Shown here one piece after another: positions 28,032-31,931 of a stretch of DNA of 64,000 nucleotides. Every line of letters begins with the position of its first letter. Position 1 is the stretch's first letter. Where the stretch lies: sequence record PZ445517.1; one strand, written 5' to 3'. The notes under the pieces are model-generated. The model was given only the letters and a program-made list of their open reading frames with translations, had not been told where the DNA came from and did not search any database. The stretch comes from a phage. Position numbers and translations under genes: made by a program.

Positions 28032-31000
28032 ATGGCTACTTTAAAACAAATACAATTTAAAAGAAGCAAAACTGCAGGTCAACTTCCTGCTGCTTCAGTA
28101 TTAGCCGAAGGTGAATTGGCTATTAATTTAAAAGATAAAACAATTTTCACAAAAGATGACTCAGGCAATGTTATAGAATTAGGTTTAAAATATGGAGGAA
28201 CAATTGATGGTTCTTTAACTGTTAATGGAAATATAACTGGAACTTTAATTGGAAATTCTAGCACAGCTACTAAATTGCAAACACCTAGGAAAATTAATGG
28301 TATATCCTTTGACGGGTCAAAAGATATCACGCTAACTCCATCTGACATAAATGTCAATAGCACAACGTTTATAAAAAATAACGGCGAATTACCTACTAAT
28401 GCTAATTTAGATACGTATGGGCCCATTGAAGAATATCTTGGTGTTTGGTCGAAATCTACTTCAGTAAATGCGCAACCAGCAAATAAATTCCCAGAAGAAA
28501 ATGCCGTAGGTGTATTAGAAGTATTTGTGGCAGGCCAATTTGCTGGCACTCAGCGTTATACTGTTCGGTCTGGTAACGTTTATATTCGTTCCTTATCTGC
28601 TAAATGGAATGGCGTAGATGGTCCGTGGGGTGTATGGCGTAATGTTCAAGCGTCAACTCGTCCACTTTCACAAACGATTGATCTTGATAGCTTGGGAGAA
28701 TTAGAACATTGTGGCTTATGGCGAAACAGTTCAAGCGCAATCGCATCATTTGATCGCCATTATCCAGAAGAAGGATCAGCCGCACAAGGATTTTTAGAAA
28801 TATTTGAAGGTGGTTTATACACGAGAACGCAGCGATATACTACCCGCATGGGTATGGTTTATACTCGTTGTCTCGCTGCCGCATGGGATGCTAGCGCACC
28901 TAAGTGGGAGGAATGGAAGCAGGTTGGTCATGGCACACCAGCGACTTTCTATGACGGAGATCTGAATGATTTTAAAACTCCTGGGTTATATAATATTTTA
29001 GGCACTGATGCCGTTATTAACTGTCCTACCGGCGAAGGTTTGCCGACTGTTATTGTTGGTTTGCTGGAAGTTAAACAACGTGCTTCTGGCGGTGCTATTT
29101 TCCAAAAATTTACTACTGCCGGAACGGGTGCAACTACTCGCGATCGTATTTTTGAGCGTGCATATACTGGTGGTGTGTGGGGTGCATGGAACGAAGTATA
29201 TACGTCCTATTCTATGCCGATCACTCTGGGTATTGGTGGTGTTAAATCTCAATTAGCGGAGCTAGATTGGAACACATTTGATTTTGTTCCTGGCAGTATG
29301 TTTAGCGTTCCCTTGAACAAAATAAAGAATATGCCAGCAAATATGGATTGGGGCACGATTGATGGAAACCTGGTTATGTTTTCCGTTGGACCAAGCGAGA
29401 GTGACGGAACAGGTCGAACAGTTCAATTATGGCGTGGCAGAGCAACACAATCAGACTATCGTTATTTTGTTGTTCGTATTACTGGACCTTTGGCGAATAG
29501 AACTTGTACAGCTCGACGCGTTGTTCTTGAAGATGGTCGCCACACATGGACAGCTCAACAAGATTTTAATGGTGCTGTTAACTTCGGTGCTCCTACCAAT
29601 TTTAACTCTACTGTTAACCTTAATAACACTACCACTTTTAAAACAGAAGTTAAATTCCGCTCATCTAATGCATTCCGTATGTATGCCGGAAAATTTGGTA
29701 CAATTTTCCGTAATGATGGAGAGAGTCTTTATATTCTTTCCACCGACGAAGATGATCAAGCTGGAAACTTTAATACAAATAGACCTTTCCGTTATGAATT
29801 AAGAACTGGTGATGTTACTTTGGGTGGTGCTGTTGGTGCTAACGTTTTAATTTTAAAACGTGATTCTCTCACCGCATTTTTTGGCGGTGATATTAACATG
29901 AAAGGCACGATGACTTTTGACGCCGGGCGTTTAGGATCACGAGATTATTTTAAATTTAACCATTGGGGTGATAGTAATAATGCTCGTGATAACATCATCC
30001 AGTTAGAAGATAGTCAAGGCGCCCATTTTTCCACTGAACGTACTTTAGCGACAGGTGCAATTAAAACTCGTTTCTTTGGCGAAACATTCACTGATGGTAC
30101 ATTATACCTAAATCAGATGAATAATAGCTCTGAACGATTCTCTATTAATAATTGGGGAAATTCAGAAGTTGGTCGCGCGGCAGTGATGGAAGTCAGTGAT
30201 TCCAAAGGTTATCACTTCTATACGGAACGCAGGACAGATAACAGTTTGAATTTTGATGTTGCTGGCAATTTTACTGCGCATGGACCTTCCGGAATAACCA
30301 TCAAAAACTCAACTGGTGCACGACATATCTGGTTTAGAGATGATAGCGATGCAGAAAAGGCTGTTATCTGGGCTACAGATGAGGGTATTTTACATATTCG
30401 CAATAATCATGGGGGTTCATTTAGTCATCACTTCCAGGGTGCAATGATTAAAGCGGGAGAGCGTGTTCCATATAATGGTGAATACGCTCTTATCCGTGGT
30501 GATATTTCAGGTGGTGCATGGGTAGACTGGCGAGAGCGTCCGGCTGGATTGTTGGTAGACTGTCAGGACTCACGAAATCAAGCATATAACATTTGGAAAG
30601 CTACTCATTGGGGCGAACAGCACCTTGCGGCGATGGGTGTTCATGCTGGCGGTGGTAATCCTCATGTTGTATTGCATGTGGCTGGGAATGATTATGCATT
30701 TGCATTTAACGGTGATTTTACTGCTGGTGCTGCTGTATATTGTAACGACGTTTATATTCGTTCTGACCGTCGTCTGAAAATTAATGTTGAAGACTACGAA
30801 GAGAATGCGGTGGATAAGGTAAATAAACTCAAAGTTAAAACCTATGATAAAGTTAAATCTCTTTCTGACCGCGAAGTTATCGGCCATGAGATTGGTATTA
30901 TCGCACAGGATTTGCAAGAAGTATTACCGGAAGCTGTTAGCACTTCTAGTGTCGGATCTCAGGATAACCCAGAAGAAATTTTAACAATTTCTAACTCTGC

Positions 31001-31115
31001 TGTGAACGCGCTTTTAATTAAGGCTATTCAGGAAATGAGTGAAGAAATTAAAGAATTGAAAACGCCTCTCTTTACTAAAATTGCTCGCAAAATTAGTAAA
31101 TATTTTAAATTCTAA
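28032..31115 (+). CDS. 37: long tail fibre distal subunit gp37 with C-terminal intramolecular chaperone domain
   Basis: 1027 aa; N-terminus shares motif with gp36; C-terminal about 117 aa carries SDRRLK ... [15 protein letters not shown] chaperone/autocleavage motifs. Confidence 0.95.
30762..31112 (+). other. intramolecular chaperone / autoproteolytic (peptidase S74-like) domain within gp37
   Basis: Ser911 at 30762 begins [13 protein letters not shown]...; motifs typical of tail-fibre/endosialidase C-terminal chaperone domains. Confidence 0.7.
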
Positions 31116-31151
31116 CAACAAGGGGGAAATGCCCCCTTTGGAGTATAAATT

Positions 31152-31931
31152 ATGGCAGTAGTTGGAGTTCCTGGCTGGATTGGAAGTTCAGCCGTAAATG
31201 AAACGGGTCAGCGCTGGATGAGTCAAGCAGCTGGTCAATTAAGATTGGGTGTTCCTTGCTGGATGAGTCAATTTGCAGGTCGCTCAAGAGAAATTATTCA
31301 TACACTTGGAGCAGACCATAACTTCAATGGTCAATGGTTCCGAGATAGATGTTTTGAGGCAGGTAGTACACCTATAGTGTTTAATATCACTGGAGATTTA
31401 GTATCATATTCTAAAGATGTTCCTTTATTCTTCATGTATGGAGATACACCGAATGAATATGTTCAGTTGAATATACACGGCGTAGCGATGTATGGCCGTG
31501 GCGGTAATGGCGGTAGCAATAGTCCTGGTTCAGCTGGCGGTCATTGTATTCAAAACGATATTGGTGGGAGACTAAGAATTAATAATGGCGGAGCTATTGC
31601 TGGAGGTGGCGGCGGCGGAGGCGGCGGCAACAGGGGTAGACTATCCTTTGGCGGCGGAGGCGGTCGTCCATTTGGCGCTGGTGGGTCTTCCTCTCATATG
31701 AGTGCTGGTGCAACCTCCGGCACTATTTACGCTCCGGGTGCAGGATCTGTCGGTGAGGGGTCTCTTAGTGCATATACAGGCGGGAATGGCGGTGAAGTTG
31801 GCTCCGCAGGAGGTAGATGTAATACTCACGGTACCGGTACAGAATATGACGGCGGTGCTGCTGGTTATGCCGTCATAGGGTCTACGCCGACATGGCAAAA
31901 CGTTGGAGCAATATATGGTCCAAGAGTATAA
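31152..31931 (+). CDS. 38: gp38 receptor-recognising adhesin (T2-type, glycine-rich motifs)
   Basis: 259 aa; poly-Gly motifs ([23 protein letters not shown]) separating variable segments; longer than T4 gp38 chaperone (183 aa). Confidence 0.85.

Follow-up and report, generated by a model that had tools for sequence, protein, structure and literature searches.

We found that the last 117 residues of gp37 (residues 911 to 1027), the distal subunit of the long tail fiber, are a standard Peptidase_S74 intramolecular chaperone domain. We propose that this domain aids the trimerization of gp37 and then cleaves itself off at the Arg910-Ser911 bond and that gp38 caps the trimmed tip; we put the probability of this reading at about 90%. 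The analysis was carried out on a stretch of 64,000 nucleotides of phage DNA (PZ445517.1), which we call the window, and the features described below lie on its plus strand unless otherwise stated. The evidence obtained here is the identity of the domain, the conservation of its catalytic motif, the fold of its monomer, and the gene context.

Gene 37 occupies positions 28032 to 31115 and is an open reading frame of 1027 codons plus a stop codon that encodes the precursor of the distal subunit. By sequence comparison, its product is 100% identical to that of the LR597657.1 CDS VUF56047.1, and in a profile search gp37 matched PHROG 1699, "long tail fiber protein distal subunit," with an E value of 7e-177. 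The DNA from gene 37 through gene 38 is 100% identical to that of Escherichia phage T4_ev240 (LR597657.1, genus Tequatrovirus). The neighboring open reading frames form the usual T-even long-tail-fiber block, which consists of gp34 (1289 amino acids, 91% identical to T4 gp34), gp35, gp36, gp37, and gp38, followed by an open reading frame at the position of the holin gene t. T2 has the same gene order as the window, 34-35-36-37-38-t. Farther upstream within gp37, we noted that residues 522 to 587 (29595 to 29792) match the Pfam family Gp34_trimer (PF21446; E = 1.8e-14), a trimerization domain described for the proximal fiber protein gp34. Gp34_trimer is also found in T2 gp37, and the match of T4 gp37 is weak and falls below the cutoff.

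The chaperone domain (30762 to 31112; 13.2 kDa) lies at the extreme C terminus and runs to the gp37 stop codon at 31113 to 31115. It opens with the motif SDRRLK, which occurs only once in gp37, at residue 911, with its first codon at 30762. The domain also contains the conserved G-x-IAQ...PEAV core of S74 at residues 951 to 969 (30882 to 30938), which we located on the translation and in an alignment of homologues. When we searched Pfam, residues 911 to 969 aligned to positions 1 to 57 of the 58 positions of PF13884 (Peptidase_S74, "Chaperone of endosialidase"). The score was 54.7 bits (E = 1.2e-14) with the whole of gp37 as the query and 59.1 bits (E = 5.4e-16) with the 117 residues alone, and the curated gathering score of this family is 22 bits. 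The initial annotation had read the last 117 residues as beginning at S-DRRLK and had proposed that they belong to Peptidase_S74. Its coordinates and the motifs that it quoted agree exactly with the translation, and the PF13884 match, far above the 22-bit cutoff, bears out the family assignment. PHROG tail fiber families also matched the 117 residues, with E values as low as 5e-47 and always at the C-terminal ends of the profiles. Using tblastn, we found the S74 domain in 1582 phage records, with hosts ranging from Escherichia to Streptococcus, Vibrio, and Synechococcus. The L-shaped tail fiber (ltf) genes of Tequintavirus were among these matches.

To follow the catalytic motif, we used an alignment (A1) of the last 137 residues of gp37 with 28 homologues. 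These homologues are mostly short partial proteins, so A1 is adequate for alignment and does not serve as a survey of full-length gp37. We found that Ser911 and Lys916, which form an S-x4-K pair, are invariant in the 29 aligned sequences. Further invariant columns are D912, R914, L915, G955, A958, Q959, E967, V969, and one glutamate in the C-terminal helix, and the I, P, and A residues of the core are almost invariant. The tblastn matches and A1 together showed that the Ser/Lys pair is kept across phages of Streptococcus, Vibrio, and cyanobacterial hosts. From this conservation and from alignment to S16, the GA-1 structure 3gud, and T2, we predict that the scissile bond lies between R910 and S911, directly before the catalytic motif S911-D-R-R-L-K916 (30759 to 30779 for R910 and the motif).

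We next consider the fold. AlphaFold2 was run on A1 for a monomer of gp37 residues 891 to 1027 (137 amino acids) and gave a model with a mean pLDDT of 81 and a pTM of 0.67. The model contains four beta-strands (residues 935 to 941, 949 to 956, 969 to 975, and 980 to 986) together with short helices. These are followed by a long C-terminal helix at residues 988 to 1010 (30993 to 31061; DSSP helix 98 to 120 of the 137-residue query), a predicted element of a trimeric coiled coil, and by a second helix at residues 1013 to 1024. Thus, the helical tail that had been described from the sequence appears in the model as this pair of helices. The monomer model shows the order of elements that characterizes an S74 fold, beta-hairpins and then a long C-terminal helix. 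In profile searches, helix 988 to 1010 aligned with the C-terminal helices of 6f45, 8jov, and 7dc3. The first 15 modeled residues, which fall within the 20 residues preceding the predicted cleavage site, have pLDDT values below 50, as would be expected of a strand that forms only in the trimer. When the model was compared with the PDB by Foldseek, the sole matches with E values below 0.05 were 7dc3, 3gud, and 3gw6, and the remainder were noise (E > 0.2).

Comparison with solved structures placed gp37 closest to the distal fiber of Salmonella phage S16. The best PDB sequence match was 6f45 chain A, the S16 gp37 distal fragment (E = 1e-12). In this match, the S16 segment CRDLNVSSDRRIKKDIKAF aligns to the region of the predicted gp37 cleavage junction, with SDRRIKK opposite SDRRLKI. 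With the A1 profile as the query, the PDB matches were 6f45 (1.8e-17), the phage tail fiber 8jov (2e-13), the MYRF intramolecular chaperone domain (ICA) 7dc3 (3.6e-9), and GA-1 3gud (2.5e-4). The chain in 3gud, which is the chaperone fragment set free from the GA-1 neck appendage, starts with SDERHK exactly at the Ser911 column. S16 gp37 and the gp37 of the window have in common SDRR(I/L)K, the IAQ...LP core, the C-terminal helix, and the placement of the domain at the end of the protein; in both phages, the next gene encodes a gp38 of the adhesin type that has three tryptophans near its N terminus. S16 gp37 differs in its junction, which is DLNVS/S rather than DVYIR/S, in its chaperone domain, which has 113 residues and lacks the 16-residue tail found in the window, and in the body of gp37 before the junction, which is divergent.

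T2 gp37 is also similar. Its PF13884 match, at residues 1243 to 1300, comes straight after NVYIR/SDIRLK, and the gene that follows encodes a gp38 with PF05268 and Gp38_N. In contrast to gp37 of the window, T2 gp37 has 1341 residues and a chaperone domain of 99 residues without the cationic tail, and the two chaperone domains are 41% identical (48 of 117 aligned columns). The junction of Yersinia phage fibers, DVYIR^SDGRLKI, is one residue off the DVYIR/SDRRLKI of the window; this likeness is judged by the junction, and cleavage there is itself a prediction, made in a 2021 paper (PMC7917993).

More distant relatives carry the same features. The K1F endosialidase (3gw6), GA-1 (3gud), and T5 pb1 proteins belong to the same Pfam family, have the Ser/Lys+5 motif, and carry the domain at the C terminus after a trimeric beta-structure. 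The K1F and GA-1 structures match the fold of our model, but with only 9 to 17% identity in the Foldseek alignments. The K1F, GA-1, and T5 domains are carried by tailspikes or fibers whose functional tip is the trimmed end, whereas in the window the trimmed end is the predicted docking site for a separate adhesin. The catalytic residues of the K1F endosialidase bear the same numbers, Ser911 and Lys916. The numbering in the window is genuine, and its agreement with K1F is a coincidence. The best structural match was the eukaryotic homologue MYRF ICA (7dc3; Foldseek E = 2e-6, TM 0.6). Unlike gp37, MYRF is a eukaryotic transcription factor bound to a membrane, and its cleavage serves to set the factor free, not to mature a fiber. 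The initial annotation had seen in the C terminus of gp37 the hallmark motifs of the self-cleaving chaperones of endosialidases and of the T5 L-shaped tail fiber. The Pfam S74 match, the Foldseek match to 3gw6, and the ltf genes found by tblastn are all in accord with this. T5 pb1 structures were absent from our PDB sequence, profile, and Foldseek match lists, and the link to T5 is suggested by the tblastn matches to Tequintavirus ltf genes and by shared Pfam membership.

The gene that follows gene 37 is consistent with a tip of this kind. Gene 38 (31152 to 31931) starts 36 bases past the gene 37 stop codon and encodes a T2/S16-type tail fiber adhesin of 259 residues, for which we predict docking at the tip of gp37 after trimming. 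In Pfam, gp38 matched GP38 (PF05268; E = 9e-70) and the attachment domain Gp38_N (PF21721; E = 9e-21). Its N-terminal 147 residues are 51% identical to T2 gp38, and it has tryptophans at residues 9, 22, and 37, the positions that they occupy in T2 gp38. A role in docking on gp37 has been described for the three N-terminal tryptophans of gp38 (PMC6851490, PMC7917993).

A T4-type fiber is suggested by the name T4_ev240, and we rejected it for this phage. In a T4-type tip, gp37 is a self-contained receptor-binding needle and gp38 is a separate chaperone, and the proteins encoded in the window are of another kind. Pfam searches of T4 gp37 found Collar (PF07484) and Phage_fiber (PF03335) repeats without PF13884, and T4 gp38, which is unrelated to that of the window, had no Pfam match. 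The gp37 of the window aligns well with T4 gp37 over residues 1 to 66 only (79% identity), and its gp38 is of the adhesin type. This contrast with T4, together with the likeness of gp37 and gp38 to those of T2 and S16, places the fiber tip in the T2/S16 type despite the name of the phage.

Removal of the gp37 C terminus has been described in both of these relatives. Proteolytic processing of T2 gp37 was reported by Drexler et al. in 1986, as cited in PMC3157838. In S16, the last 113 residues of gp37 are described as autocleaving at DLNVS^SDRRIKK, which exposes the docking surface for gp38 (work of Dunne et al. from 2018, cited in PMC7917993, PMC7289586, and PMC6851490). The chemistry has been worked out in T5 pb1, where Ser1264 is placed beside Lys1269, five residues on, and an arginine of the neighboring subunit completes the site (PMC4690869). 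In K1F as well as in T5, the neighboring subunit contributes upstream residues of the preceding domain (Arg1250 and Asp1239 in T5), which supply an arginine sensor and an oxyanion hole. Since the T5 site needs the arginine of a neighbor in the folded trimer, cleavage can occur only after correct trimerization. Replacement of the T5 pb1 serine with alanine abolishes cleavage of the recombinant protein (PMC4690869), and the same Ser/Lys mechanism has been proposed for K1F, as cited in that paper.

By analogy with T2, S16, T5, and K1F, we infer the following course for cleavage, its position, and gp38 docking in this phage. Three copies of the chaperone domain would associate through their long helices and so nucleate the trimeric, beta-structured distal shaft. 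Once the trimer had folded correctly, Ser911, activated by Lys916, would attack the Arg910-Ser911 bond of each chain. The 13.2-kDa domains would then leave, and gp37 would be reduced from 113.0 kDa to a mature form of 99.8 kDa comprising residues 1 to 910 (28032 to 30761), an end point that we take from the S16 cleavage site and the N terminus of 3gud. The mature gp37 trimer would end in the DVYIR strand. One copy of gp38 would then use the helical domain at its N terminus, with Trp9, Trp22, and Trp37, to dock on the exposed tip and would provide receptor recognition. The initial annotation had predicted removal of the C terminus after trimerization and attachment of gp38 to the new tip; this agrees with the model published for T2 and S16, and our results support it as a prediction for this phage.

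We weighed this course against other accounts of the same residues. A chance or low-complexity match, with no real domain behind it, would leave nothing to cleave. We consider this close to impossible, given E values of 1e-12 to 1e-47 over the independent libraries Pfam, PDB, and PHROGs, the matches in 1582 phage records, and the agreement of the predicted fold; the Pfam, PDB profile, and Foldseek results exclude it. It is harder to dismiss that the S74 domain helps gp37 to trimerize and then stays on the mature fiber, with residues 911 to 1027 kept and gp38 bound elsewhere. Cleavage in this phage is deduced by homology, and the unusual extra amphipathic tail might be structural, both of which would suit a retained domain. 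We nonetheless think it very improbable that the domain is kept, as gp37 has both catalytic residues, Ser and Lys, intact, and neither varies among the homologues. Moreover, the S16 model, as described in PMC7917993, has gp38 on the surface bared by removal of the domain, and T2 gp37, with a like junction, is processed according to the work cited in PMC3157838.

Instead of being lost by autoproteolysis, the C terminus could also be cut off by a separate protease of the host or the phage. The title of the 1986 T2 paper, as cited in PMC3157838, speaks of "proteolytic processing" and does not name a mechanism, and the P1 residue of gp37 is arginine, a common protease site. Against a separate protease, Ser-to-Ala changes in members of the family block cleavage of the recombinant proteins (T5 pb1, and K1F as cited in PMC4690869), S16 gp37 is described as autocleaving (PMC7917993), and the Ser/Lys pair is conserved across very different hosts. 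We regard such a protease as no more probable than retention of the domain, that is, as having only a slight chance of being correct. The invariant Ser/Lys pair, the behavior of the family as recombinant proteins, and the T2 and S16 precedents make both of these accounts unlikely and favor trimerization followed by self-cleavage at Arg910-Ser911.

The S74 domain and its removal in favor of gp38 are already known biology, supported in T2 (1986) and S16 (2018) and predicted for a junction that differs by one residue (2021). Our finding addresses no open question, since work on T2, S16, T5, and K1F has established the mechanism. Its use lies in annotation, in that the mature fiber of this phage should end at the predicted Arg910. 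It also bears on engineering. Since the docking surface for gp38 would form only after the chaperone has left, host range swaps and recombinant gp37-gp38 pairs must keep the S74 domain together with a matching gp38 N terminus.

The DNA around the junction is more conserved than genes 37 and 38 taken together. About 116 phage records share with the window, at an identity of 95% or higher, the 390 bases that cover the chaperone domain and the intergenic region (30762 to 31151), and in 13 of them the identity is 99% or higher. The entire gene 37-gene 38 query (28032 to 31931), in contrast, is mostly 80 to 95% identical across phages. This difference indicates that the end of gp37 and the start of gp38 behave as a conserved module with variable flanks. 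Subtypes that pair a gp37 C terminus with a gp38 N terminus have been described (PMC3157838). The higher conservation of the chaperone domain DNA fits its location at the gp37/gp38 junction.

The domain of the window ends in a variable add-on, a cationic amphipathic tail at residues 1012 to 1027 (31065 to 31112). We found that this tail is a strongly amphipathic helix, with a hydrophobic moment of 0.73, compared with 0.31 for shuffled sequences, and a net charge of +5. In 6f45, the S16 chain continues for just 7 residues beyond the aligned helix. The distribution of the tail in A1 is mosaic: it is present in homologues that are 67% identical over the domain, and homologues that are 72 to 94% identical have other tails. 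Because some distant homologues have the tail and closer ones do not, it gives the impression of a module exchanged on its own. The tail could conceivably give the released trimer of 13-kDa domains a second role, such as associating with membranes or recruiting gp38 or gp57A while the fiber is assembled, although we think this very unlikely. Alternatively, it might be a mere leftover of recombination beside gene 38.

Two further features lie near the junction. An antisense open reading frame of 115 codons on the minus strand (30570 to 30917, with a TTG start) overlaps the coding region of the chaperone domain. It had no match among the PHROG families and is most likely a mechanical open reading frame, so we set it aside. 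The spacer between genes 37 and 38 contains a G+C-rich stem-loop (31119 to 31140) immediately ahead of GGAG, the ribosome-binding site of gene 38. It has a GGGGG/CCCCC core and a minimum free energy of -14.7 kcal/mol (z = -4.8 versus shuffled sequences). We considered it as a plus-strand terminator; with only three T residues behind the stem, it does not qualify as a canonical one, and a terminator scan did not call it. The stem-loop might instead stabilize the transcript or modulate the translation of gene 38.
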